Positions 4,550 through 50,959 of a stretch of DNA of 64,000 bases are shown piece after piece. This DNA comes from an uncultured Verrucomicrobiae bacterium (GTDB lineage Bacteria > Verrucomicrobiota > Verrucomicrobiia > Chthoniobacterales > UBA10450). The DNA lies in assembly GCA_963728955.1 (NCBI GenBank), contig CAVSMG010000019.1:104275-168274 (forward strand). Direction: 5' to 3'. The notes under the pieces are model-generated. The model was given only the letters and a program-made list of their open reading frames with translations. It was not told the DNA's origin and searched no databases. The translations under genes were made by a program, and so were the position numbers. The first letter of the stretch is position 1. Every line of letters begins with the position of its first letter.

Positions 4550-6940
4550 TCACAAAACGCTTATGTCCCAGTTGCGTTTTTCCCAGCGCTGCTCGCCCTT
4601 CCAAAAAAGCGTAAATGTGAATACTGAGCCGACTGCCCAGTCTGCCGTTGGAAAATCCGCATACCAAAGATTCAACTCCTCTTGATGAACGGTCTGCGAT
4701 TCGTTAGTCCGCGCCCAATTGTCAGTTGACCAAACGATCGTCGCTTCCCCGGCCAGAATGATTCGCAAAATTTTACCGTGCGACACATTTCGCATTGAGT
4801 GACGCAGACTCCAGATTTCGTATCGGTTTTGCATTCGATTCGCGACGTAGCGTTGATACGCCGGCTCGACACGGTCGAAACAGACGCCGTCATGGCAACT
4901 GCGCACAAGTGAAACGTATTCGGCGTGCGACCAGCAAAGCGGCATCGCCGCGCCGGTTGGGCCCCCAGGTTTCATTCTCGCGTCTGGCAAGTCGTCACCG
5001 TCCCAAATCTGTTCGGTCAGCATCCCGCCCTGATTGGAAAAATGTTCCATCGTCTTGATGAACGGCTTTGGATCGCGTCCGGCAGCCAATTCGTAATGGC
5101 CGCGCTCTCCTGTCAAGATCGGCCAGCACCGGCCTACGCCCGTTCCGTCGTATGCGCTGCCGTCATCCTTTTGTCCATAGCCATCATGATTGTAACGATG
5201 CCAGCCCGGGCCCTGAGGTAAATCATGCTTGATCACGCGATCGATCACTTTGATCGAGTCGCGCACCAGCGGATCGTTAGGCTCTCGAATACCGTAGCGC
5301 ACCAGATGCAGGAAATCCCCGCCCACGACATTGCGCACCGGATGCAAACCGCCGCCGTTGGCGATCTGAATCATTGTAATATTCGGATCGGGGTGGGGAT
5401 CAGGCGCGTTAGGATCGGTCGTATTAATTCGGACGTAATGGCGAGGAATGCCTGCGACCAGCTCGCCCTCTGTTGTTACCGTCCAATCTTCAACATGCGC
5501 CGTGAGCCAGTCGGCATACGCGAAAATGAAATCGGCCGCGTCTGCTTTGCCATATTCTTTCGCCCAGTCCGCGGCGCACGCGAGAGCCGCGATCACCGAA
5601 GCGAGGGTGGAAGGCGAGTAGCCTGCATTTTCTTCCCAGCGGTCTTGCGCTGTCACCGGACCATGCAGAATCAGGCGCGTCGCCGCGCGCCTTACAATGG
5701 CGCGAGGATTGAACAAACCGAGCGCATCATGTTTATGCAAACGCCACGCCAGCAATATCGGCAGTGCAACCTGGTCGAGTTGCAACCCCGACCAATAAGC
5801 CGTTCCGTCGATCCAGCTGTTTTGCGGAAAACTGCCGTCCGGCCGCTGAATCGCCGCGAGCCAGATCAACGCGCGCAAAGGCGTGCCCATTTGACCGGTG
5901 GCGAGGAGCGCGGTGGCAGTATGCACAAGGTCGCGTGTCCACACGAGGTGATAGCCGCCCAGATCTTGATCGCCCTTGGTTTCGCCCCAGGGAATGCTCA
6001 TCGACGCGACCGTTGCGCCTTGAAAAACTTTGTCCTCGTGCGTTAGCAGAACGCATCGGCTCAGCCGATACATTCCACCGTCGTCGCATGTATCGTTGCT
6101 GAAATCGAACTTGGGATCCACGACTGCTCGCTGCCACTGACGAACATATCCTTCGCGTTTTAACTCAAACGATTCGGCCAACGATTGGAACAACTTTGTG
6201 GCAGCGCTCTGGTAGCTCCGACCAAGCGCAACGGCGATCGTAAATTCACCGCTGTCCGGCAAATGGATTTCCCCGGTCAACGCGATGTTGCCATTCTCAG
6301 CGGAGTGAAATTCCCAATCCATCTTGAAATTGTCCATCAAGTCCTGCCAACCGTCGCTGAAACCGACATAACCGATCGATCGCCGCGAGAAACCACTGCT
6401 GCATGCCATAAGCAGATGCACGTTCTTCCGCTGCGCATGGAGCAGTTTGTCATCCCCGATTTCCGAACATGATCCCGAATTGCCGGCACCAAAGCCGCCG
6501 AGGTGCGGCGCCAGCAAAGCGTAAAGCCGCAGCTTGCCGCGCAAGGTTTCGTCCAGCACCTCGAGCTTTGTATGCACGAACAAGACCGACCGGTGCGGAT
6601 CAGTGAGCACATGTTTAACCACACGATAACGGCCGCCCGGTTCGGAATTCGTTAATTGATAAAAGAGGCAATCGCGCTCGGGATATTCAATCTCGTGATC
6701 GAGGTCACGCTTTTCTTCGTGGCAGAACGTTTCGCCGTCGCTGATGAGGAACTGAAAGTCTCGCGTATTCGGTTTATCGACGTGCGGATAATAAATTTCG
6801 TTCACGATTCCGTGGCTCAGCGTGAACCATATGCGGCAACTGGTGTGATAGGCTGTGCCTACGCCCTCTTTGGCGCTCGAAGTCCAGCGCGGCTCAATTC
6901 CCGGAGCGCCAAAGGCAAATGAATTTTCACTCGAACTCAT
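4550..6940 (-). CDS. Glycoside hydrolase family 15 glucoamylase (glucan 1,4-alpha-glucosidase-like) with N-terminal beta-sandwich domain
   Basis: Uninterrupted 796-aa ORF. It has the bacterial glucoamylase N-domain (GAPGIEPRWTSS...), a catalytic (alpha/alpha)6 region with GGYHLVWTRDL and RWEENAGYSP, and a C-terminal extension. Confidence 0.9.
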   Translation of the reverse strand: MSSSENSFAFGAPGIEPRWTSSAKEGVGTAYHTSCRIWFTLSHGIVNEIYYPHVDKPNTRDFQFLISDGETFCHEEKRDLDHEIEYPERDCLFYQLTNSEPGGRYRVVKHVLTDPHRSVLFVHTKLEVLDETLRGKLRLYALLAPHLGGFGAGNSGSCSEIGDDKLLHAQRKNVHLLMACSSGFSRRSIGYVGFSDGWQDLMDNFKMDWEFHSAENGNIALTGEIHLPDSGEFTIAVALGRSYQSAATKLFQSLAESFELKREGYVRQWQRAVVDPKFDFSNDTCDDGGMYRLSRCVLLTHEDKVFQGATVASMSIPWGETKGDQDLGGYHLVWTRDLVHTATALLATGQMGTPLRALIWLAAIQRPDGSFPQNSWIDGTAYWSGLQLDQVALPILLAWRLHKHDALGLFNPRAIVRRAATRLILHGPVTAQDRWEENAGYSPSTLASVIAALACAADWAKEYGKADAADFIFAYADWLTAHVEDWTVTTEGELVAGIPRHYVRINTTDPNAPDPHPDPNITMIQIANGGGLHPVRNVVGGDFLHLVRYGIREPNDPLVRDSIKVIDRVIKHDLPQGPGWHRYNHDGYGQKDDGSAYDGTGVGRCWPILTGERGHYELAAGRDPKPFIKTMEHFSNQGGMLTEQIWDGDDLPDARMKPGGPTGAAMPLCWSHAEYVSLVRSCHDGVCFDRVEPAYQRYVANRMQNRYEIWSLRHSMRNVSHGKILRIILAGEATIVWSTDNWARTNESQTVHQEELNLWYADFPTADWAVGSVFTFTLFWKGEQRWEKRNWDISVL

Positions 6941-7255
6941 GCCCTAAGCGTTAGCCGATTCGAATGGGAACAGCAAGATCGTCAGGTCGGGGTATCGCGA
7001 CAACACGCAACGCGTGTCTCTCGGGTAGGACCTTGGCTCGCCGTGGCTTGATGCGAGGGCTGGTCGGCAAAGGCGCTGCAACCAACAGGCGAGCCGCGTG
7101 TGCTCCGCAGAGATCCGTGTCATCCAGCAGCCGCCTGCGGTGGCGGACGCGCATTGCAACAATCGATCGGCGTGCAGAAGACTGCGCGTCCTACCTACAA
7201 AATCTGTTGTCGGCTTGATTCGGTCCTCGGCGCAGATTAAGCGTGGCTCTGGCAT

Positions 7256-8878
7256 ATGTCTCGATCGAGCACGAGTGAAGTGTTGCGCGCGCATTGCGCG
7301 GCGATTGCAGAAGAGGAAGCGATTCTGCGCGAAGGCGGCGGCAAGGCTGGCCATGAACGCCAGCGCAAGATGGGACGCTTGCCGGTGCGCGAACGGATAC
7401 GTCACTTACTCGATACCGACTCGCCGTTTTTCGAGATTGAACTCTGGGCCGCTTACAAAATGTACGAGCAATGGGGAAAAATCCCGGCGGCAGGAGTCGT
7501 GACGGGCATCGGCAATGTCGAAGGCGTTTCGTGCATGATCGTCGCCAACGACGCAACGGTGAAAGCCGGCGCGTTTTTTCCCGCGACTACAAAAAAGGTC
7601 ATTCGCGCGCAGCGAATCGCGTTCGAATGCGCGCTCCCGCTCGTTTACCTGGTCGATTCGGCGGGCGTGTTCCTGCCGATGCAGGATGAAATTTTTCCCG
7701 ATGAAGACGATTTCGGCCGGATCTTTCGCAATAACTCTGTGATTTCAGCCGCCGGAATCCCGCAGTTTGCCGCGATCATGGGGAATTGCGTCGCCGGCGG
7801 AGCGTATCTCCCGGTGTTGTGCGACAAAATTTTGATGACACAGGGAAGCGGCCTTTATCTTGCGGGGCCGTCTCTGGTGAAAGCGGCAATTGGTCAAATC
7901 GTCGATGCCGAAGATCTGGGCGGAGCACAAATGCATTCAGAAATCAGCGGCACCGTGGACTTTTTTGAAAAAGACGATCCTTCGTGTCTCAAACGTCTTC
8001 GTGCGCTGGTTGCGATGCTGCCCGAAGCGACATCTGGCGGCGGGCGCGCCCTGCCAGATTCACCGAATCCCGGGAAAAATCCGGACACTGTTTATGATCT
8101 GATCAGTTTCGATGGCCGGAGAAATTATGATGCGCGCGATCTGCTGGCCACGATCGTTGACGCGAACTCAATGGATGAATACAAGGCCGATTACGGCAAG
8201 ACGCTAGTGACGGCATATGCACGTGTTAACGGACGACCCGTGGGCATTGTCGCCAATCAGCGCGTGCAGGTCAGGACCAAAAAGGAAGGAATACAGATGG
8301 GCGGCGTCATTTATTCCGATAGTGCGGATAAAGCGGCGCGCTTCGTGATGGATTGTAATCAGACAAATTTGCCGATCTTTTTTTTCCAGGACGTCAGCGG
8401 GTTCATGGTCGGGCGCGATGCGGAAGAGAGCGGGATCATTCGCAGCGGCGCGAAACTGGTGAACGCTGTGAGCAATTCCATCGTGCCGAAGATCACAGTG
8501 GTGGTAGGCGGGTCTTTCGGAGCCGGTAATTACGCGCTGTGCGGCAAGGCATACGATCCGCGATTCATCCTTGCCTGGCCGAATGCGCGTTATGCTGTGA
8601 TGGGCGCCGCGCAGGCTTCGGACACGGTGTTCTCAATTCTTGCCAGGGCGCACGAGCGAGGGGACAAGAAAGCATCGCCGGAGGAACTCGAAGAATTACG
8701 CCTGAAAGTGAAACAAAGCTACGAAGAGCAAACCGATATTCGCTACGGTGCCGCTCGCGGCTGGGTGGACGCGATCATCCAGCCACACGAAACACGCGAC
8801 GTGCTGATTCGCCTTTTGCAGTACGTGTCGCGTCCGATGCCGAAAGCGCATTTTCACACCGGAGTAATTCAGGTGTAG
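7256..8878 (+). CDS. Acyl-CoA carboxylase carboxyltransferase (beta) subunit, methylcrotonyl-/geranyl-CoA carboxylase-like
   Basis: 540-aa ORF with carboxyl-transferase N and C halves: GKLPVRERI-like RLPVRERIRHLLD, ANDATVKAGAFFP, GNCVAGGAYLP, and FFFQDVSGFMVG. Confidence 0.9.
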   Translation: MSRSSTSEVLRAHCAAIAEEEAILREGGGKAGHERQRKMGRLPVRERIRHLLDTDSPFFEIELWAAYKMYEQWGKIPAAGVVTGIGNVEGVSCMIVANDATVKAGAFFPATTKKVIRAQRIAFECALPLVYLVDSAGVFLPMQDEIFPDEDDFGRIFRNNSVISAAGIPQFAAIMGNCVAGGAYLPVLCDKILMTQGSGLYLAGPSLVKAAIGQIVDAEDLGGAQMHSEISGTVDFFEKDDPSCLKRLRALVAMLPEATSGGGRALPDSPNPGKNPDTVYDLISFDGRRNYDARDLLATIVDANSMDEYKADYGKTLVTAYARVNGRPVGIVANQRVQVRTKKEGIQMGGVIYSDSADKAARFVMDCNQTNLPIFFFQDVSGFMVGRDAEESGIIRSGAKLVNAVSNSIVPKITVVVGGSFGAGNYALCGKAYDPRFILAWPNARYAVMGAAQASDTVFSILARAHERGDKKASPEELEELRLKVKQSYEEQTDIRYGAARGWVDAIIQPHETRDVLIRLLQYVSRPMPKAHFHTGVIQV

Positions 8879-10998: not shown

Positions 10999-11072
10999 CC
11001 AAGCTGAGCCAATGTACCTGAATTTTCCGATGCGGGAAGGTGCTAGCCGTGGTAAAGAATGGCGCCGCAATT

Positions 11073-11146
<74 letters not shown>

Positions 11147-11155
11147 TGTGAACTT

Positions 11156-14100
11156 CTACCCCAAATTCGGCGCGAGCCGTTTTTCGACTGCCGCAACTGG
11201 TTCGCCGTGCCGCAGCGCGTAATCCCTGACTTGATCGCGCCCGATTTGCCCGACTCCGAAATATTTTGCCCCCGGATGCGAAAAATAAAGTCCGCTTACA
11301 CTGGCACCAGGATGCATGGCAAACGATTCCGTCAGTTTGATCCCGGCGTTTTCCTCCGCATCGAGCAGATCGAATAGGGTTCGTTTCTCGGCGTGATCGG
11401 GACAAGCGGGATAACCGGCAGCGGGCCGAATGCCGAGATATTTCTCACGAATGAGATCAGCATTCGATAATTGTTCGTCGCGCCCAAACCCCCAAGCGAT
11501 GCGAGCTTGTTGGTGCAGGTATTCAGCGAACGCTTCAGCTAATCGATCTGCCAAAGCTTTGGCCATAATCGCGCTGTAGTCGTCGAGCTGACCCTTGAAT
11601 TCCTCAGCGAGCTCATCCGCGCCATGAATCGAGACCGCAAATCCCCCGAGATAATCGCGAAGTAGCGCATGCGTCTCGCTTGCATTTGCAGAGCCTGCAA
11701 GCCGGAGGCTCGCACTACTCTGAGGCGCGACGTAATCGGCCAGACAGTGATTGGGTTGCCCCGATGGCTTTTGCATTTGCTGACGCAAAAAATAAAACGT
11801 TGCGATTTTTTCAGTGCCGGTGTCATCAGCGTAAACATCAACATCGTCGCCGACGGCATTTGCCCGCCAAAACGCATAGACGCCGCGCGGGAACAGGAGA
11901 TTCTGCGCTACGATGCGTTCAAGGAGTTCCTGCGCGTCATCGAAAAGTTCACGCGCTTGTTTGCCGATCTTAGGATCGTCGAAGATCGCCGGATAGCGTC
12001 CGCGCAATTCCCACGTATGAAAGAACGGTGACCAATCGACGTATTCGACCAGATCACGAACAGTGATCGCGACTTTCTGGGGAGCGCACGCCGCCGGCGT
12101 GTCCATCCCAGGCGCTGGCCGGGATGTTTCCTTCCCAGCATACCAAACCCAGGGATAATCTTCACCGGGTTGGGCAACGCCTGCGTCCCACGGATTCCGC
12201 GCAATGTATTTGAATTTTTCCTGCAGATCGCTTTCGGAGCGAATCAATCGATCAAAGGATTCACGCTCCCACACTGGTCCGCTTTTTTCTTTGAGCTCAT
12301 TAATCTTGTGAGCGGTGAAGGACTTAAGACTGTGCAGAATGTCGGTGAGCGAATAGAATTCCGTAGCGTCCGGAGTCTGACTCCTCACCCGTGGTTCAAT
12401 CAGGATGTGAACGTGATCTGGCATCACACACGCTGCGTAGAGCTCGTATCGCCGCTCATTCCAATACAGGATGCAATCCAGGACGATTTTGCGAGCGGCG
12501 TCGCTTAATTTTTGTCGAGCGTTTGTGCTCCAAGTAATCGCGTACTTTGCCCACGGGCGTTCAAAGCGCGGGAGCCGCCTTTTGCTGTAATGAGTATCAC
12601 TGAAAGTTTCCGGCGGGCCGCCGGAAACAGCACGCGAGCCGCGTGCGCTCCCCGGATCGCTGCCATAAACACGAAGTCCCAGAAATTCCGGGTTCGGCGG
12701 GACATAATTGTTCCAATCGATCGGCGTATGATTTGCGCGTGCTTCCTCGAGCGTCAGTAGTTTCTTTCTTTCGGTTTTTGCTGCGTGCTCCCGGCGCAAC
12801 CGCTCGTAGTCTTCGCGCGTTTTTTTGTCGAACTCCGATTTGAGTTCCTCGTTAAGCAGCGAATTCACCACCCCGACGGCGCGTGACGCATCGAGCACGT
12901 GCACGGTGCTGGCGCGATAATGCGGAGCGATCTTGACTGCCGTATGCGTCCGGCTGGTTGTCGCTCCGCCAATCAGGAGCGGCACGCGGAATCCCTCGCG
13001 CTCCATCTCCTGCGCGACGTGCACCATCTCGTCGAGCGACGGCGTAATCAGCCCGCTTAGACCGATTACGTCGGCGTTTTTCTCGCGCGCTATGTCCAAA
13101 ATCTTCGCTACCGGAACCATCACGCCAAGATCGATGACGTCGTAATTGTTACATTGCAGAACCACGCCCACGATATTTTTACCGATATCGTGCACGTCGC
13201 CTTTAACCGTGGCCATCACGATGCGACCCTGCGGTTTCGCATCAGCAGATTTTTCGGCTTCCATGAAGGGCATCAGGTATGCCACCGCTTTTTTCATTAC
13301 CCGCGCACTCTTTACGACCTGCGGGAGAAACATTCTGCCCGACCCGAACAAGTCGCCTACCACACTCATCCCGGCCATGAGCGGACCCTCGATCACTTCG
13401 AGCGGTCGCTTGTATTCGCGGCGCGCTTCCTCTGTATCGTTGTCGATGTAATCGGTGACGCCTTTGATCAACGCGTGCTTCAGGCGCTCTTGCACAGGCT
13501 GCTTTCGCCACGTTTCATCGGCGACAGGTGTTTTTCCCTTCGCCTTTACGCGTTCCGCGAACTCGACGAGCCGTTCGGTTGCATCATCGCGGCGGTTTAA
13601 CAGCACATCTTCGACACGTTCGCGCAGCTCGGGTTCGATTTCTTCATAAACTGCCAGTTGTCCGGCGTTCACGATCCCCATGTCGAGCCCGGCGCGGATA
13701 GCGTGAAAGAGAAAAGCGGCGTGCATTGCTTCGCGCACGGTGTTGTTGCCGCGAAACGAAAACGAAATGTTGCTCACCCCGCCGCTGACTCGCGCACCTG
13801 GAAGGTTTTGCTTGATCCAGCGCGTCGCTTCAATGAAATCGACCGCGTAATTGCGGTGCTCCTCCAGGCCGGTAGCGATGGTCAGAATGTTTGGATCAAA
13901 AATGATGTCGCTCGAGGGAAGCTCAGCCCTCCGGGTCAACAGATCGTACGCGCGCGCACAAATCTCGATTTTGCGCTGGAAATTGTCGGCCTGCCCTTTC
14001 TCATCGAACGCCATCACGATGGCGGCCGCGCCGTATCGTCGAATCAATTGCGCCTGGCGTAGAAATTCCTCTTCACCGTTTTTCAAACTGATGGAGTTCA

Positions 14101-14479
14101 CGACGGCTTTCCCCTGCAAACATTTGAGTCCAGCCTCGATTACGCTCCACTTTGAGCTGTCGATCACGATAGGGATGCGCACGATTTCTGGTTCGCTACC
14201 TATCAAGTTCAGGAAGCGAGTCATGGCTGCTTCCGAATCGATCATCCCCTCATCCATGTTCACGTCGAGCAGGTTCGCGCCGCCCTGCACCTGCTGACGC
14301 GCGACGGCCAAAGCGCCTTCGAAATCGTCCGCGAGGATCAGCTTCGAAAATTTTGGCGAGCCCGTGATGTTGGTGCGCTCCCCGATCACGGCGAAACCGA
14401 ATTCCGGCGTGATCTTTAGCGGTTCCAGCCCTGACAATTGCAGGGCGTTTTCGTCAAACGCCATTTCTTCGATCGGCAT
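11156..14479 (-). CDS. metH: Cobalamin-dependent methionine synthase: pterin-binding, B12-binding and AdoMet-reactivation modules. The Hcy module is in the upstream ORF. The gene carries an in-frame RayT-like insertion.
   Basis: Uninterrupted 1107-aa ORF. Motifs seen: LSGLEPL...[11 protein letters not shown] (pterin barrel), GDVHDIGKN plus GLSGLIT (B12 DxHxxG/SxL), and [13 protein letters not shown] plus [12 protein letters not shown] (activation domain). About 190 extra residues sit between EFLGLRVY and [12 protein letters not shown]. Confidence 0.9.
12079..12653 (-). mobile_element. RayT-like HUH/Y1 transposase module embedded in-frame in metH, bounded by 13-bp inverted repeats
   Basis: GGGGAGCGCACGC at 12079-12091 and its exact reverse complement at 12641-12653. 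The encoded segment has RRLPRFE, HUH ([10 protein letters not shown]) and the catalytic Tyr motif ([13 protein letters not shown]). Confidence 0.7.
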
Positions 14480-15590
14480 CTGACAAAGACGCCCTACTGT
14501 TTAGTTCGCGCGGTTTGCAATCCTGCACGGCCTTTGCGATTGCGCCGATGTGTTCCGGGGTTGTTCCGCAACAGCCGCCCACCAGGTTCAGCCAGCCGTT
14601 GGCCGCCCATGCGACAACTTTCGGCGCAAAGGTTGCCGCTGTTTCAGGAAATCCCGTCGGCGAAAGGGGATCGGGCAATCCCGCATTCGGATAGGCGCCC
14701 ACGTAAAATGGCGCGACCCGCGAAACTTCTTCGATGAAGGGTTCCATTTCATCCGGACCCAGTGCGCAGTTCAAACCAAGGATGAGCGGTTGCGCGTGGG
14801 CGATGGAAATAATGAACGCTTCCACCGTTTGGCCGCTCAGGTTACGTCCGGATTTGTCGATCACAGTGCCCGAGATCATCAACGGCACGCTGCGTCCGGT
14901 TTTTCCCAATGCATCACTGATTGCGAACAGCGCGGCCTTTCCATTAAGCGTGTCGAAAATGGTTTCGACGATGAGAAGATCGACACCGCCTTCGAGCAGC
15001 GCTTTCGCTTGATCGAGGTAAGTTTGGCGAAGCTGATCGAACGAGACCGCACGAAAGGCAGAATCGTTTACGTCAGGTGAAATCGAACCCGCGACTGGAA
15101 GGGGACCCATTGATCCGCCAACAAATCGCTGTTGTCCGGTTTCATTCGCGGCGCGATCTGCCGCGGCGCGCGCGATACGCGCTGCTTCAAAATTGATTTC
15201 CTGAACGAGCGCTCGAAGACCGGCATCGTCCACCACGCGCTGAAAGAATTCCTGATCTTTGCGGTCACGAGTGGGTTCGCCTTGAAACAGGAAATCGTGC
15301 GAACCGATTGTTGTTCCGCTAAAGGTGTTGGTTTCGATAATGTCCGCGCCGGCGTCGAGGTACTTGGAATGAATCTCCTCAATGACCCGTGGTTGCGTCA
15401 CGTTCAGCAGCTCAAGACTGCCTTTGAGATCTTTCCCTTTCCAATCGCGAAACCGTTTCCCACGATAGTCCGCCTCGGACAATCCGTAGCCCTGAATCAT
15501 CGTGCCCATTGCGCCATCGAGCACGGCTATGCGTTCGCGCATCAGCGATTCCAGAGGATGAAGCCCATGAGTTGCCATGATGTCCGGCAA
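14454..15590 (-). CDS. Homocysteine S-methyltransferase module of methionine synthase (MetH N-terminal domain as a separate ORF)
   Basis: 378-aa ORF with [12 protein letters not shown] and IIETNTF, and the zinc-ligand region LNCALGP ... [11 protein letters not shown]. Its 3' end overlaps the metH ORF start by 26 nt in another frame. Confidence 0.85.
14475..14500. repeat. Degenerate half-REP at the junction of the two methionine synthase ORFs
   Basis: GGCATCTGACAAAGACGCCCTACT differs at 3 of 24 positions from the REP arm GGCGTCTGACACAGACGCCCTACA at 47991-48014. The metH ATG (14477-14479, minus) lies inside it. Confidence 0.6.
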
Positions 15591-15658
15591 CTAAAAAGGC
15601 GTTTCCCTAATGAATCAAGAAACAAATTGATGCATCATGATGCGTAGATGTGTTGATT

Positions 15659-15688
15659 AACCACGAATGGACACGAACGCACACGAAT
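15659..15688. repeat. Decamer array AACCACGAATGG-ACACGAACGC-ACACGAAT (cacgaat family), solo copy
   Basis: Same 30-bp array as the terminal repeats of the GxxExxY cassettes at 36154 and 37400. Confidence 0.7.
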
Positions 15689-15723
15689 GTTGTGGAGGCG
15701 GTTGTTGTGTCAATCGCCTGAAG

Positions 15724-15773
15724 TGTAGGGCGTCTGTGTCAGACGCCGAGGTGTTTCAGAGAAACGCCCTACA
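15724..15773. repeat. REP element, TGTAGGGCG family
   Basis: TGTAGGGCGTCTGTGTCAGACGCC-GAGGT-GTTTCAGAGAAACGCCCTACA. It has an inner palindrome GGCGTCTG/CAGACGCC and outer arms TGTAGGGCG/CGCCCTACA. Near-identical copies lie at 39392 and 47956. Confidence 0.8.
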
Positions 15774-36109: not shown

Positions 36110-36474
36110 AAGAGTCAACCACGGATAACACGGATGGATCGTTCACGAAGAGTAACCACGAATGGACACCAATGGACACGAATAGCGAAAAGCTTCTGCT
36201 CAAGGAGGAGGTGTTTCAGGTTGTCGGGTGCGCCATCGAGATTCTCAACACGCTTTGGCATGGTCTTCTTGAGAAGCCGTACGAAAATGCGTTGGTCGCA
36301 GAGTTTTCGCTACGAAAAATTCCATTTACGCAGTCCCGAAAGCTTTCGGGATTGAACTATCTCCGGGTCACAGGTCTCCGAGTTGGCGTGATCCTTAACT
36401 TCAGGCACCGGAAATTGGAATGGGAGAGGATCGCCTTAAAAAATTCGTGTCTATTCGTGTCCCTTCGTGGTTAA
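36106..36474 (+). pseudogene. GxxExxY (PD-(D/E)XK superfamily) protein, internally deleted copy
   Basis: The N-terminus is encoded by decamer repeats (NHEWTPMDTN). The GLLEKPY motif is present, but about 38 aa including the D...(D/E)xK core are missing relative to the copy at 37418. The start overlaps the pilM-like stop. Confidence 0.7.
36154..36472. mobile_element. GxxExxY cassette 1, bounded by 30-bp inverted decamer arrays
   Basis: Left array is AACCACGAATGGACACCAATGGACACGAAT (36154-36183). The right array at 36443-36472 has reverse complement AACCACGAAGGGACACGAATAGACACGAAT, about 27/30 identical. A cacggat-type array precedes it at 36117-36137. Confidence 0.6.
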
Positions 36475-36478
36475 TAAG

Positions 36479-37401
36479 ATGAAATGGTTTCAGCAAAACC
36501 GCGCGCTCGGAACCATTCTGCTCATTTCGGGAAGTTGCATCATCCTCGGCGCAGGTCTGCTTTACTGGAGGTGGAGTGTTTGGAGCGATGCCAAACAGAC
36601 GTTCGACCAGGCCACAGGCGAGCGCGACAGATTGCAGCGTCTCGATCCCTTTCCAAACGACGCGAACTACCGGAAATTGCAAGGCTACCTCGAGAGGTAC
36701 AAAGTCGCACTCGACAAGTTTAAAGACGAGCTAAAAGGCGAAATGGCGCCGGAGCCGGCGACTTGCGCCTAACGAATTCCAATCGCGTTTGCGCCAGGCT
36801 ACCCTCGCAACACAGGACCGGGCGCGCACGAACAATGTCAAATTGCCGGACAAATTTCAGCTCGGGTTCGACGAGTTCACCCGGACAATGCCTGGCACAG
36901 CCGTGACGCCGTTGCTTGGACAGGAACTCTCGCAAGTTCAAATGCTCATTAACATTTTGCTGGACGCGAAGGTGGACGGCATCCTGTCTTTCCACCGCCA
37001 TCCGTTGCCGCAGGAACATGGAGTATCCCCGACGCCGAAACCGCACCATCTCCAGGCCCGGCAGAAGAGTGGTGGCGGCGCGAAAACCTGGCGGGACGCC
37101 CGCGCCTGATTTGATCGAGCGCAATGTGGTCGATGTCACGTTCAAGGCTGCGCCCGGTGCAGCGCGAAGAGTGTTGAACGAAATCACAGGTTCCCGCGGG
37201 CAATTTTTCATCATCCGCACGCTGTACGTGCACGACGAAAAAGACAAAGGGCCGCCCCGCGAGAGAAACGCAAGCCCGACGCCGACGCCAGCCGCCGGGG
37301 CGAGTCCCGGTCAGTCACCCGCAGGCGCGCTGAACTTCATCGTTGGTAACGAGCACATCGAAGTCTCCGCCACGATCGAAATGCTGCGCTTTACCTTCTA
37401 A
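36479..37401 (+). pseudogene. Pilus-locus protein, Amuc_1100-like (N-terminal TM), two frameshifts
   Basis: Sensible sequence runs through frames of ORFs 36467, 36789 and 36916: MKWFQQNRALGTILLISGSCIILGAG (TM) ... KLPDKFQLGFDEF ... VVDVTFKAAPGAARRVLNEITGSRGQFFIIRTLYV ... IEMLRFTF. The family assignment comes from memory of Amuc_1100 and is tentative. Confidence 0.55.
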
Positions 37402-37832
37402 CCACGAATGGACACGAATGCACACCAATAAAGGGGTGCTCTTGTTCAAAGACGAGGTGTTCCAAATTGTCGGGTGTGCCATCGAAGTTCTGAATACGCT
37501 TGGGCATGGACTGTAGAGAAGCCTGTACCAAAACGCATTAGCAGTGGAGTTTGGGCTGAGGAAAATTCCTTTTCGGCAGCAACCGTCTTTCGACGTCGTT
37601 TACAAAGGACAAAAGGTTGGGCTGTTCATTCCTGACGTAATTGCTTTCGATTCGATCGTTGTCGACACAAAGGTAATTGATCGAATCACCGATCACGAAC
37701 GAGGTCTGATATTGAACTACCTACGCATCACGGGTCTTCGTGTTGGCGTAATCCTAAACTTCAAGCACAGGAAATTAGAGTGGGAGAGGATTGCCTTATA
37801 AAATTCGTGTCTATTCGTGTTCATTCGTGGTT
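37400..37832. mobile_element. GxxExxY cassette 2, bounded by 30-bp inverted decamer arrays
   Basis: Left array is AACCACGAATGGACACGAATGCACACCAAT (37400-37429). The right array at 37803-37832 has reverse complement AACCACGAATGAACACGAATAGACACGAAT, about 26/30 identical. The left end overlaps the stop of the upstream gene. Confidence 0.6.
37418..37801 (+). pseudogene. GxxExxY (PD-(D/E)XK superfamily) protein, full length but with an in-frame TAG in the signature motif
   Basis: MHTNKGVLLFKDEVFQIVGCAIEVLNTLGHGL-TAG(37514-37516)-RSLYQNALAVEF... Copy 1 reads GLLEKPYENAL here. Two compensating 1-nt indels flank the TAG. The remainder (PDVIAFDSIVVDTK...LNYLRITGLRVGVILNF) is intact. Confidence 0.7.
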
Positions 37833-37843
37833 AATCATTACCC

Positions 37844-38798: not shown

Positions 38799-38806
38799 GG
38801 ATCTCT

Positions 38807-38874
38807 AACCACGAATTTACACGAATGGACACGAATTACAGGGAGGACCACGGATTACACGGATATCACGGATG
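38807..38874. repeat. Solo decamer arrays (cacgaat type followed by cacggat type)
   Basis: AACCACGAATTTACACGAATGGACACGAAT (38807-38836) followed by CCACGGATTACACGGATATCACGGATGG (38847-38874). No partner inverted array or GxxExxY gene is present. Confidence 0.7.
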
Positions 38875-39391: not shown

Positions 39392-39441
39392 TGTAGGGCG
39401 TCTGTGCCAGACGCCATGGCGTTTCACAGAAACGCCCTACA
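39392..39441. repeat. REP element, TGTAGGGCG family
   Basis: TGTAGGGCGTCTGTGCCAGACGCC-ATGGC-GTTTCACAGAAACGCCCTACA. It lies just upstream of the inferred secretin start codon. Confidence 0.8.
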
Positions 39442-42218: not shown

Positions 42219-43748
42219 GTGAAAAAAACAAATTAACCCTTCAGTTAAGGCGCACCTTTTCCGGAGCGCGCTGGTTCTGCTTTCACTGGTGACTTTCAGC
42301 CAGGATATCTTCTGTCAGACGCCGAAGCTCCACGCCACTCCCACGGCGACGGCAGAGTGCTTTAGGCCCCCACCGGGAGCGTGTGTATGGTATGAAGCGG
42401 AGTCGCCTATTTGCCCCCCAAATCCCCAAGCCGGAGACCGATGTAACATCCTGGAGGGAAGCGCCATCGTTCTAAGCTGCCCGACATGCTCCGAACGGAA
42501 AAAAGGTAAGTTACGTGGGCAGCAACGATGGTAATCTGCAGTTCAATGCTGTCGGTGTTGTCGCAACGGGCAATTACACCGTGACGATCTGCTACCTCAA
42601 CGGAGACGCGGTGCGCTACGCCTATCTGAGCGTGAACGGCGGTCCAGGAATGCCTGTGACCTTTCCCTCCACTGGCTCGTTTGAGACTCTGGGGTCAATA
42701 CAGGTAACCGTCACTTTAAACACGGGTTGCAACACGCTTAAGTTCTACAATCCGATCGTTGGTAGCTGGGCGCCGGATTTCGATCGGATTCAATTCAACT
42801 GCCCGACCTGCGCGCTGCCTGCACCCACGCCCACGCCTACGCCTACATCCACGCCAGCACCAACCCCTACACCAGACGGGTGCTATCCCAATTTCACGAC
42901 AGCGGAAGGATGCGATGCGCTTAGTCTCCTCGCCACAGGCGCCGGAAATGCAGGGCTTGGTTGGCGTTCGCTCTTTTTGGATACGACCGGCGGCTTCAAC
43001 ACCGGTGTTGGCGGCGGAGCGCTGGCGCTCAACAACGGGGATTCCAATACGGCGGTGGGCGCTGCAGCGTTGTTGCTCAATACCAGCGGCACAAACAACA
43101 CCGGCGTTGGAACCGACGCGCTCGTCTTTAACGACAGCGGTGACTCCAACACTGCCACCGGTTACTTTACGCTCATGAACAATACCACCGGCGGCTTCAA
43201 CACGGCCATCGGTTCGGAAGCGCTCACTGCCAACACCAGCGGGAACAACAACACAGCCACCGGTGATCTCGCGCTCACAGAACACCGAAACCACGAGCCA
43301 CCATGTTGCATAGGCAAAATGGCCGGGTCTGGTATCACCACCGCCAATAACAACATCATCATCGGTCACCACTCTGGCGTGCACACTGTTTTTGGCCAGG
43401 AAAGCGACAGGTGCTTTATCGACAACATCCCCGGTGCGCCGGTTTCCGCCGCGACGGCAATGCCGTGATGGTCGATTCCGATGGAAGATTGGGCACTGTC
43501 ACCGCCGAAGGACCGGCCCGGGTGGATTTTCGCTCAAAGGCATCCGGCCCCAAGCCATTCCCGATGCCGCCAAGCAAGCGATGCTCAATCTCGAAGTTCA
43601 AAAGTTGCGGACAACGATCTCGCAACAACAGAACCAAATAGAAATGCTCACCGCCCGGCTGAAAGAGCAAACCGCACAAATCCAGAAAGTGAATGCCCAG
43701 CTCGAAATGCGTAAGCCGGCAGCCAAAGTGATTGTGAACAAACTGTAA
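42219..43748 (+). pseudogene. Secreted protein: CBM6/35-like domain, Pro/Thr linker, Hep_Hag/YadA-head-like NTA-G repeats, C-terminal coiled coil; at least 4 frameshifts
   Basis: GTG start plus signal peptide (MKKQINPSVKAHLFRSALVLLSLVTFSQD) if the A7 run at 42222-42228 is read as A6. Then YEAES...VSYVGSNDGNLQFNAV...LSVNG...APDFDRIQF, PTPTPTPTSTPAPTPTP, repeats of NTAVGAAAL/NTGVGTDAL type, and LNLEVQKLRTTISQQQNQIEMLTARLKEQ. Confidence 0.65.
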
Positions 43749-43782
43749 AACTGTTCAAAACAATGAAACGAAATCAAAAAAG

Positions 43783-44747
43783 ATGAAAAATCGAAGTACG
43801 ATATTGATGGTCATCCTGCCGGTGTTAGCCTGCTTCGCGCTTTTGCCAGCAGCGCGGGCGGTCAGTCCGGCACCGGATGGATGCTATCCCAATTTCACGA
43901 CAGCCGAAGGGTGCGATGCGCTTAGTTTCCTCACCACCGGCGCTGGAAATACAGCGCTTGGTTGGCGATCGCTCTTTTCAGATACCACCGGCAGCTTCAA
44001 CACCGGCGTTGGCGCTGGGGCGCTGGTCCTCAACAACGGGAGCTCCAATACCGCAGTGGGCGCTGCAGCGTTGTTGCTCAACACCACGGCCTCAAATAAT
44101 ACGGCCGTTGGAACTGACACACTCGTCTTTAATGACAGCGGTGCCTCTAACACTGCCACTGGTTACTTTGCGCTCATGAACAATACCATCGGCGGCTCTA
44201 ACACAGCCATCGGTTCGGAAGCGCTCACTGCTAATACCAGCGGAAACAACAACACGGCCATCGGCAATCTGGCGCTTAAGAACAGCGAAACCACGAGCGA
44301 TAACGTTGTCGTAGGCACAAGGCCGGGTCTGGCATCACCACCGCTAATAACAATATCATCATCGGCCACCACTCTGGTGTGCACAGTGTTTTCGGCCAGG
44401 AAAGTGACAGATGCTTTATCGACAATATCTCCGGTGCACCGGTTTCCGCCGCGACGGCCGCTATAGTGATGGTCGATTCCGATGGACGACTGGGCACGGT
44501 CACCGCCGATGGACCTGAGCTGGGTGGATTTTCGCCCAAAGGCATCCGGCCCCCAGCCATTCCCGATGCCGCCAAGCAAGCCATGCTCAATCTCGAAGTT
44601 CAAAAGTTGCGGGCAACGGTCACGCAGCAACAGCAACAAATAGAGAAGCTCACAGTCCAACTGAAAGAGCAGGCTGCGCGAATCCAGAAAGCGAATGCCC
44701 AGCTCGAAATGCGCCAGCCGGAGACAAAAGTGGTCGACAAACCTTAA
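43783..44747 (+). pseudogene. Paralog of the preceding gene without the CBM: signal peptide, Hep_Hag-like repeats, coiled coil; one frameshift
   Basis: MKNRSTILMVILPVLACFALLPAARA, then DGCYPNFTTAEGCDALSFL... The frame changes near 44320 and continues as AGSGITTANNNIIIGHHSG...CFIDNISGAPVSAATA...LNLEVQKLRATVTQQQQQIEKL. Confidence 0.65.
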
Positions 44748-47955: not shown

Positions 47956-48015
47956 GGGGCGTTATCTGTGAAACGCCATTTCGAACAGGTCGGCGTCTGA
48001 CACAGACGCCCTACA
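47956..48015. repeat. REP element, TGTAGGGCG family, inverse orientation
   Basis: The reverse complement reads TGTAGGGCGTCTGTGTCAGACGCC-GACCTGTTCGAAATGGC-GTTTCACAGATAACGCCCC. Confidence 0.75.
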
Positions 48016-50130: not shown

Positions 50131-50205
50131 CTCGAAAACGCAAGCGCGAAATGGACGCTCGATTTGTCGGCCACGTTTTGGAGTGCGGCGTTGCTGCGCC
50201 GCTTT
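50131..50205. repeat. REP family 2 (CTCsAAAACG...CGTTTTGGAG hairpin), copy upstream of RayT
   Basis: CTCGAAAACGCAAGCGCGAAATGGACGCTCGATTTGTCGGCCACGTTTTGGAGTGCGGCGTTGCTGCGCCGCTTT. It is about 90% identical by eye to 50886-50959 and in the same orientation. Confidence 0.75.
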
Positions 50206-50271
50206 TCAACAACGATTCGCAACAGAAAAACGCGTTGTCTTTTTACGTCGACCCGAGCAGTCTTGATCCCG

Positions 50272-50838
50272 ATGCCTCAGCCTGCAATGCCGTGGCCGCA
50301 CGCACCCACGCATCAGCTCGCGGAAAGCGGCGCGTACTTCGTCACGGCTGGCACTTATCTTAAAGCACACCACTTCCACACAGCGCCGCGGCTCGAAACT
50401 TTGCAAGTCGAGTTGCTCAGTGTGACACGGGATTTTTCCTGGCAACTTGTAGCTTGGGCGGTTTTCTCGAATCATTACCACTTCGTTGCCCATTCTCCGA
50501 CAAATTCCGCAGACGCACGCAGTCTGTCACGAATGTTAGGCGTGCTTCACACGCGCACCGCTACATGGATCAATCAAGTGGATAACGCACCGGGGCGCAA
50601 GGTGTGGCACAACTTTTGGGACACCAAACTAACGTATCAGAAATCTTATCTGGCGCGGTTGAATTATGTGCATCAGAACGCAGTCAAGCATGGTCTCGTG
50701 CCGGTGGCGAATCAATATCGATGGTGTTCAGGTAGATGGTTCGAGCAAATCGCGTCACCCGCAACCGTGCGCTCGATTTATCGATTTAAGATCGATCGGT
50801 TGAGCATGCGGGATAACTTCGCACCGATCCTAGAGTAG
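50272..50838 (+). CDS. REP-associated tyrosine transposase (RayT / IS200-like Y1 HUH transposase)
   Basis: 188 aa from MPQPAMPW. It has an HUH motif (SNHYHFVAHSP) and a catalytic Tyr motif (LARLNYVHQNAVKHGLV), and is flanked on both sides by REP family 2 copies. Confidence 0.8.
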   Translation: MPQPAMPWPHAPTHQLAESGAYFVTAGTYLKAHHFHTAPRLETLQVELLSVTRDFSWQLVAWAVFSNHYHFVAHSPTNSADARSLSRMLGVLHTRTATWINQVDNAPGRKVWHNFWDTKLTYQKSYLARLNYVHQNAVKHGLVPVANQYRWCSGRWFEQIASPATVRSIYRFKIDRLSMRDNFAPILE

Positions 50839-50885: not shown

Positions 50886-50959
50886 CAAGCGCAAATGGGC
50901 GCTCGATTTGCCGGCCACGTTTTGGAGTGCGGCGCTGCTGCACCGCTTTGTGACCGCGT
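50886..50959. repeat. REP family 2, copy downstream of RayT
   Basis: CTCCAAAACGCAAGCGCAAATGGGCGCTCGATTTGCCGGCCACGTTTTGGAGTGCGGCGCTGCTGCACCGCTTT. It is preceded by the palindrome GCGCTCGC-CACA-GCGAGCGC (50865-50884). Confidence 0.75.

Follow-up and report, generated by a model that had tools for sequence, protein, structure and literature searches.

The subject of this analysis is the methionine synthase gene metH in a stretch of 64,000 nucleotides (nt) of contig CAVSMG010000019.1, from an uncultured Verrucomicrobiae bacterium (hereafter the 64-kb window, with coordinates counted from its first nucleotide). The main open reading frame (ORF) of metH reads without a stop codon through a RayT module, which lies between the B12-binding domain and the S-adenosylmethionine (AdoMet) activation domain of the enzyme. 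Pfam domains follow one another along the 1107 amino acids (aa) as Pterin_bind (33-271), B12-binding_2 (329-402), B12-binding (418-509), Y1_Tnp (645-737) and Met_synt_B12 (807-1092). A first-pass annotation of the bare sequence had proposed a complete RayT-type HUH/Y1 module in frame in the linker between the B12 and activation domains, with a Y1_Tnp match expected between B12-binding and Met_synt_B12. Pfam, the intact motifs and the stop-free ORF bear this out, and the match is nested as predicted. The features that make up this arrangement are listed below.

11156..14479, minus strand: main metH ORF, 1107 aa, stop-free; ratio of nonsynonymous to synonymous substitution rates (dN/dS) of the host parts 0.03-0.17 in insert-bearing lineages
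12077..12655, minus strand: in-frame element, 579 nt or 193 codons, MetH residues 609-801, from alignment with empty alleles and the codon map
12143..12589, minus strand: RayT/TnpA_REP-type Y1 HUH catalytic core, MetH residues 631-779, from AlphaFold2, PDB fold match and dN/dS
12407..12415, minus strand: HUH motif H689-V-H691, from sequence
12206..12208, minus strand: catalytic tyrosine Y758, from motif alignment and the codon map
12602..12653, minus strand: left-end inverted repeat, GGGGAGC tag followed by two tandem hairpins, encoding a linker peptide; covariance model R1, 74.2 bits
12079..12130, plus strand: right-end inverted repeat, same motif on the opposite strand, encoding the C-side linker; R1, 39.6 bits

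Extent of the insert

Relatives were surveyed by scanning one genome per GTDB species, which returned 279 related loci; the best 80 of these 279 were analysed and carry L numbers. Proteins with P numbers come from two protein searches that listed only proteins shorter than 400 aa, so that fusions were hidden from them. The element's boundaries were set by DNA alignment of the empty alleles L081 and L083 (together with protein P0122) against the occupied alleles L001, L002, L003 and L082. Uninterrupted linkers in the close relatives P0122, P0121 and P0126 read ...EFLGVRVYGAG before the junction and KISIAVRDLIEYIDW... after it. The annotation had placed the insert at about residues 609-800; its location was right, and the empty-allele alignment moves the exact end to residue 801 (609-801, window 12077-12655). 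Comparison of empty and occupied alleles revealed no target-site duplication at the element. On the coding strand the element reads 5'-CCGGGGAGC...GCTCCCCAG-3', its first residues being P-G-S and its last A-P-Q, after which the host continues with K. It is a single open frame with neither start nor stop codon and with a length that is a multiple of three. In-frame ATG, GTG and TTG codons are all absent from MetH residues 561-685 of the window according to the codon map, and the N-terminal half of the transposase is therefore producible only as part of MetH.

All carriers found are metagenome-assembled genomes (MAGs), many of them from error-prone long-read assemblies, and an assembly chimera or a gene-calling artefact could produce a false fusion. 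The broken genes in the MAG assemblies of the window and of many relatives would favour such an origin. A misassembly check had been called for by the annotation, and the junctions proved identical in the independent assemblies L001, L002, L003, L082 and P0001-P0006, which excludes misassembly in practice. An identical junction architecture recurs across several host genes and numerous independent assemblies, and the flanks are collinear with uninterrupted orthologs. We give an artefactual origin next to no probability.

Identity of the transposase domain

For Y1_Tnp (PF01797) the full ORF scores 28.5 bits and the insert searched alone 32.8 bits, both above the curated Pfam cut-off of 23 bits. 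The HUH and catalytic tyrosine motifs are present as annotated. Of 85 family copies, 81 retain both, and two of the remaining four are truncated. AlphaFold2, run on an alignment of 104 sequences, models insert residues 38-179 with a predicted local distance difference test (pLDDT) score above 90. Insert residues 1-37 and 180-197, for which the ends code, score below 50 and appear in the model as disordered linkers. The top PDB fold match of the core is 4er8_A, the E. coli RayT in complex with a REP hairpin (root-mean-square deviation 2.6 A over 138 columns), followed by the ISDra2, IS608 and IS200 transposases; all 28 PDB matches with E <= 0.001 are TnpA or RayT proteins. Sequence profiles reach the same transposase families weakly. 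DHVH, VWE and YIxRNP motifs, together with a length near 205 aa, agree with TnpA_REP subclass 2.7 of Quentin et al. 2018 (PMC6006769), and structural and motif tests together place the core nearer to RayT than to IS200-type TnpA.

A free-standing RayT-like ORF lies elsewhere in the window (50164-50838, plus strand), with NHYH and YVHQN motifs that assign it to a different, distant subclass. The annotation had likened the insert to this gene, at 50272-50838. The likeness holds at the level of the superfamily and fails as close kinship, at 23% identity over 122 aa and a Pfam score of 18.9 bits, below the cut-off. This ORF is bracketed by 57-nt direct repeats (50149-50205 and 50893-50949) that are 93% identical.

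Hairpin ends of the element

The perfect 13-bp inverted repeat that the annotation had reported at 12079-12091 and 12641-12653 is real and unique within the window. It is the tip of terminal inverted repeats of about 50 nt, each of which holds two hairpins. Forty left ends from different loci gave a gap-free alignment, in which the GGGGAGC tag is invariant and is followed by the two hairpins. Stem positions were paired in 96.9% of cases as against 80.9% after shuffling; 13 of the 17 stem pairs carried compensatory changes (8.3 in shuffled alignments), and 89 cells had changed on both sides (about 16 in shuffled alignments). None of 500 shuffles used as control equalled the observed pairing and covariation values.

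Searched with a covariance model of the ends, the 64-kb window yields the two ends of the element, one weak relic and nothing else, and neither tblastn nor a 13-mer search detected further element copies there. The relic, of the GGGGAGC type, is located at 7058-7111 (21.9 bits, 79% identity to 12619-12656) in the intergenic region between the ORFs at 4550-6940 (minus strand) and 7256-8878 (plus strand).

Distribution among host genes

The insertion in metH belongs to a widespread habit. The transposase is embedded in an identifiable host gene at 71 of the 80 analysed loci, and at 65 of the 80 an open frame of at least 100 aa lies on both flanks of the match. The loci are distributed as follows.

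AlaRS: 37 of the 71 embedded loci, at two sites
RecG: 10 of the 71 embedded loci
MetH: 8 of the 71 embedded loci, at two sites
PriA: 7 of the 71 embedded loci
ThrRS: 6 of the 71 embedded loci
CarB: 2 of the 71 embedded loci
Ham1: 1 of the 71 embedded loci
Separate ORF in a pilus-type operon slot: 6 of the 80 loci
Distant free-standing relatives in cyanobacteria and Acidobacteria: 3 of the 80 loci

Single genes can hold more than one insert, as in the 1663-aa MetH ORF of L003 and in the AlaRS of L036, each with two. When 1.84 billion representatives were searched exhaustively by profile, 178 clusters had E < 1e-30, and about 40 of the best 150, which were inspected, exceed 400 aa and match internally. 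Pfam analysis of these matches added ValRS, PurH, DnaK, BirA, a glycyl-radical enzyme (PFL), a DNA methylase and a hydantoinase to the hosts, some of them from Phycisphaeraceae. The ortholog alignment that the annotation had recommended located empty sites in close relatives, and the overall survey found the element family in at least 15 host gene families. The element family has colonised loops adjoining conserved motifs in housekeeping genes of Verrucomicrobiota and some Planctomycetota.

A mainly free-standing existence of the relatives, as proteins of about 205 aa, was considered and rejected as an artefact of the searches confined to proteins below 400 aa, since the genome loci and the exhaustive search show fusions. 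Database entries name the fusion proteins after the host only, or drop them as fusion errors. Among the copies that form separate ORFs, those of L017, L025, L034, L040 and L074 share one translationally coupled operon slot, each beginning right past the upstream stop; where checked, their own stop overlaps or abuts the ATG of the next gene. The operon-slot copy of L047 follows a PilB/GspE-like gene.

Selection on core and ends

Selection was estimated by pairwise Nei-Gojobori dN/dS among the window, L001, L002 and L003, with saturation in the deepest comparisons. The RayT core has dN/dS values of 0.06-0.14 (dS 0.7-2.8), and the host parts of MetH as a whole have values of 0.06-0.12 (dS 1.0-2.8). 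These ratios indicate that purifying selection acts on the core at the protein level with the same strength as on MetH, and that MetH remains under selection while bearing the insert. The linkers encoded by the ends behave in another way, with dS of 0.00-0.56 in co-diverged pairs and dN/dS mostly of 0.3-2.4 (0.00 in one pair); synonymous change is suppressed in the left end (dS 0.12-0.37). Low dS combined with high dN/dS implies that the constraint on the ends acts on the nucleotide sequence and not on the peptide, in agreement with the covariation of the stems.

A neutral, recent or decaying insertion would have landed by chance in frame in a flexible linker and would not yet have gained a stop. 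The MetH linker indeed varies in both sequence and length among orthologs. The insert is, however, common to L001, L002 and L003 and has co-diverged with metH (dS about 0.7-2), so that it is shared by lineages with metH dS of about 1-2. Its core retains the catalytic residues and the low dN/dS given above, and the same habit recurs at the 71 embedded loci. The substitution ratios and the distribution together refute a recent or neutral insertion, and with it the suggestion in the annotation of a very recent hit; purifying selection on the insert equals that on MetH. We regard this origin as extremely improbable.

The annotation had also raised removal of the element at the RNA or protein level. 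Removal before the mature enzyme forms might proceed by RNA splicing via the long terminal stem, by protein splicing or by ribosomal bypass, and in the mRNA, base pairing of the inverted ends could juxtapose both junctions. Against this, an Rfam scan of 11000-15700 gave only a tRNA and no intron or ribozyme, Pfam gave no match to a Hint family, and intein junction residues are absent. The insert is also under purifying selection at the codon level, and conserved codons with dN/dS of about 0.1 are sensible only if the insert is translated. An open frame at 65-71 of the 80 loci would moreover be needless were the insert spliced from RNA. Removal is unsupported by these data and appears very improbable.

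Turnover and site switching

MetH has two insertion sites, the one described above (site B) and another at the linker between the homocysteine and pterin domains (site A). In the window metH is split into two ORFs at site A, and the split is identical in L001. Two further features are located there.

14454..15590, minus strand: homocysteine S-methyltransferase domain of MetH as its own ORF, 378 aa, overlapping the main ORF by 26 nt, from Pfam
14478..14497, minus strand: REP hairpin with a GTAG tag, belonging to another family and located precisely where metH is split, sequence GTAGGGCGTCTTTGTCAGAT

The ATG of the main metH ORF (14479) falls within this hairpin. Site A holds a second RayT insert in L002, L003, L006, L014 and L067, and a further repeat type in L081 and L083 that encodes ...RDPSTPKA..AQDD.

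Occupancy of the sites is polymorphic among relatives. Empty MetH alleles are found at 81-85% protein identity. L082 is occupied at both MetH sites and L081 and L083 are empty at both, with flanks that are 96-98% identical. Pairs of ends without RayT, or short remnants, stand in frame at the same sites in L006 and L067 (MetH site B), L012 (site A), and L011 and L026 (AlaRS site 1). Neighbour-joining trees of the inserts, built on about 156 columns, do not group the copies by site. Bootstrap support for monophyly of the inserts at a site was 0/100 for MetH-B, AlaRS-1, ThrRS and RecG. Clades that cross sites reached 99-100/100, with amino acid identity of 88-90% in the tightest clade and 80-84% in another. 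The AlaRS site-1 insert of L041, for instance, is 88-90% identical to the site-2 inserts of L036 and L042, whereas its identity to the site-1 insert of L036 is only 74%. MetH site B itself is occupied by two lineages: the clade of the window with L001, L002 and L003 co-diverged with its host, and L012 and L015 stand apart, with a core dN of 0.35 as against a host dN of 0.17. Paralogs are 60-90% identical. Copies are mostly inherited vertically, and are sometimes lost, reduced to end pairs or replaced from another site.

A simple clean excision in L081 and L083 was considered and found no support, the 40 nt adjacent to the empty site being too diverged from L082.

Proposed mode of life

We suggest that the metH insert is probably an autonomous, start-less mobile element that is expressed only within its host protein, tolerated in surface loops and shielded by the essentiality of the host. 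The element would be a single-strand-DNA transposon of the RayT/TIRYT type, in which a Y1 HUH transposase is combined with inverted ends of two hairpins each. Lying in sense orientation in a permissive MetH loop, it would be translated as an internal domain, with the end peptides serving as linkers. Its expression would rely wholly on the promoter, ribosome-binding site and start codon of the host gene. Because the host gene is needed, a stop or frameshift in the element would be lethal or costly, and this might protect the element in the manner of an intein. The transposase might still be an active enzyme that cuts and rejoins single-stranded DNA at the element's own ends. Spread could occur by transposition from one permissive site to another and, after DNA transfer, through recombination involving conserved flanks.

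The most serious rival is a domesticated RayT, which would perform a job for the host, such as the processing of hairpin repeats or single-stranded DNA structures, and would use its position in the frame as a stable platform for low-level expression without further mobility. The dN/dS values as low as those of the host over dS of 1-2 and the divergence of copies within genomes would both fit domestication. RayTs are also generally thought to be domesticated and vertically inherited, according to PMC5581495, and RayT-less end pairs of the same type in related genomes are possible substrates. The hosts, however, are functionally unrelated (tRNA synthetases, MetH, CarB, PurH, DnaK, BirA, RecG and PriA), and genomes hold several copies in different genes rather than one. 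Insertion sites fill, empty and fill again with inserts of other lineages, and close relatives thrive insert-free. In the 64-kb window, the single weak relic beyond the element's own two ends offers no obvious substrate population. Domestication is considered unlikely on this balance.

Several observations weigh against the mobile-element interpretation. Long vertical persistence and strong purifying selection are equally expected of a domesticated gene. Copies that share a genome have diverged from one another (L003, for instance, carries two inserts that are 61% identical), with no recent burst visible. Next to the empty site in L081 and L083, 40 nt are much more diverged from L082 than the flanks are, a pattern that points to replacement of the allele by recombination and not to clean excision by the transposase. 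A common target motif was not definable across sites; just a weak T-Y-Y before GGGG and R-G after CCCC were seen, and these signals may belong to the inverted repeat itself. We infer both the production of the fusion protein and its nuclease activity. Given the error-prone long-read sources of many MAGs, single frameshifts or splits at individual loci are uncertain.

Comparison with known systems

One of the closest known relatives of the start-less element is the REPtron, exemplified by E. coli YafM (PDB 4ER8) and by subclass 2.7 of Quentin et al. 2018 (PMC6006769). Both have the Y1 HUH fold with HUH, W and YIxRNP motifs and a transposase gene with inverted hairpin repeats on either side that carry a conserved 5' tag, and in both systems repeat pairs without a transposase exist. 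The REPtron RayT is a single-copy free-standing gene, whereas the metH element is embedded in a host ORF without its own start or stop and its relatives occur in several copies per genome. The tags differ (GGGGAGC as against the REP tag GTAG or GT[AG]G), each end of the metH-type element is a double hairpin, and the 64-kb window lacks a large dispersed repeat population of the type of the element's ends. TIRtrons, also called TIRYT elements, consist of a RayT-like gene between long terminal inverted repeats (Di Nocera et al. 2013, PMC3733652). According to that paper, the repeats include double palindromes, repeats that open with GGGG (motif GGGGWSAS) and repeats that extend into the ends of the transposase ORF. 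The metH element is RayT-like, with long double-palindromic inverted ends that read GGGGAGCG/A, one position off GGGGWSAS. The searched parts of PMC3733652 describe no TIRtron within host coding sequence.

Short palindromic repeats within genes offer a second comparison. In-frame REPs in housekeeping genes are reported in PMC3733652, with the verrucomicrobium Opitutus terrae as the richest case alongside the RPEs of Rickettsia. As described there, in-frame hairpin repeats are translated as short extra peptides, including in tRNA synthetases and repair genes, and the RayT-less end pairs of the metH-element family behave identically at the same sites. Those repeats measure 20-150 nt and carry no enzyme, whereas the metH-type element carries a complete transposase in frame.

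The metH element also resembles inteins with homing endonucleases, as a selfish in-frame insert in conserved and often essential proteins that is protected by host essentiality. Sites are patchily occupied, degenerate or empty, as in a homing cycle. Inteins are recognised by a Hint domain, an N-terminal Cys or Ser and a C-terminal His-Asn followed by Cys, Ser or Thr. The metH insert has neither a Hint splicing domain nor the junction residues, so it would be retained in the mature protein. Its nuclease is an HUH transposase for single-stranded DNA, unlike the LAGLIDADG or HNH nucleases of inteins, and metH-type sites are variable loops beside conserved motifs, not the motifs themselves. With the IS200/IS605 family and IStrons the element shares a Y1 HUH transposase, hairpin ends and insertion without target duplication, and like IStrons it resides in genes without destroying them. 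The metH-type ends are inverted, in contrast to the same-strand hairpins of IS200/IS605; the window holds one copy and no tnpB, and the copies are not near-identical multicopy elements. Compared with IStrons, the element contains no ribozyme, and gene function would be kept by translation through the element and not by splicing.

The annotation had regarded the arrangement as undescribed, and a search of full-text literature, with subscription journals mostly uncovered, likewise found no description of a complete transposase with its ends in frame within host genes. In-frame REPs and TIRtrons are known, and the metH-type elements would be RayT/TIRYT-type elements occupying an intein-like niche, for which no description of a complete in-frame element was found.

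Other repeats and genes in the window

The metH gene and its surroundings contain further repeats. A small second palindromic in-frame insertion bounded by GTAG...CTAC is located in the activation domain (11662-11725) and encodes about 20 residues; the window, L002 and P0123 have it, and L001, L082 and most orthologs lack it. In P0153, a MetH fragment from a related metagenome, site B holds a different short in-frame repeat, ...SRDPSTLLRSARDD..., which suggests that one MetH loop accepts several unrelated palindromic elements. A tRNA gene at 11073-11146 (plus strand; Rfam 67.3 bits) lies directly downstream of metH in convergent orientation. The GTAG REP family has further copies (GTAGGGCGTCTGTGYCAGAC) at 15725-15744 (plus), 39393-39412 (plus) and 47995-48014 (minus), some of the copies forming inverted pairs. 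These copies form a dispersed REP population of the conventional kind and differ from the ends of the in-frame element. A dispersed repeat family of ACCACGAATGGACACGAAT-like units occurs in both orientations at 15655-15691, 36140-36183, 36440-36475, 37396-37429, 37800-37837 and 38803-38836. In the region 42870-44732, two blocks of about 1 kb stand in tandem with 85-87% identity and contain internal repeat units of 48-54 nt; this is probably a duplicated repeat-rich gene.

Significance

A bolder proposal is a new transposon lifestyle, the in-frame transposon, which would lack its own promoter, start and stop, persist as an internal domain of essential proteins, remain catalytically active and cycle through gain, decay to ends only, loss and re-invasion at a fixed set of housekeeping-gene loops. 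We advance it tentatively and stop just short of adopting it. If true, the in-frame transposon would be a functional analogue of inteins and homing endonucleases that works through HUH single-strand-DNA chemistry without splicing. For genome annotation, such fusions ought to be kept and not thrown out as errors. The insertions also constitute natural domain-insertion experiments, in which AlaRS, ThrRS, ValRS, MetH, CarB, PurH, DnaK, RecG and PriA tolerate an insertion of 190 residues, with possible use in protein engineering. In-frame REP insertions have long been known in Verrucomicrobia and would thereby be linked to an autonomous partner. The element would represent a third way to survive in an essential gene: introns leave at the RNA level and inteins leave the protein, and the metH-type element would stay as a tolerated domain on built-in flexible linkers. 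Such a mode of life would provide a concrete reason why some RayT-type copies stay intact for long periods.

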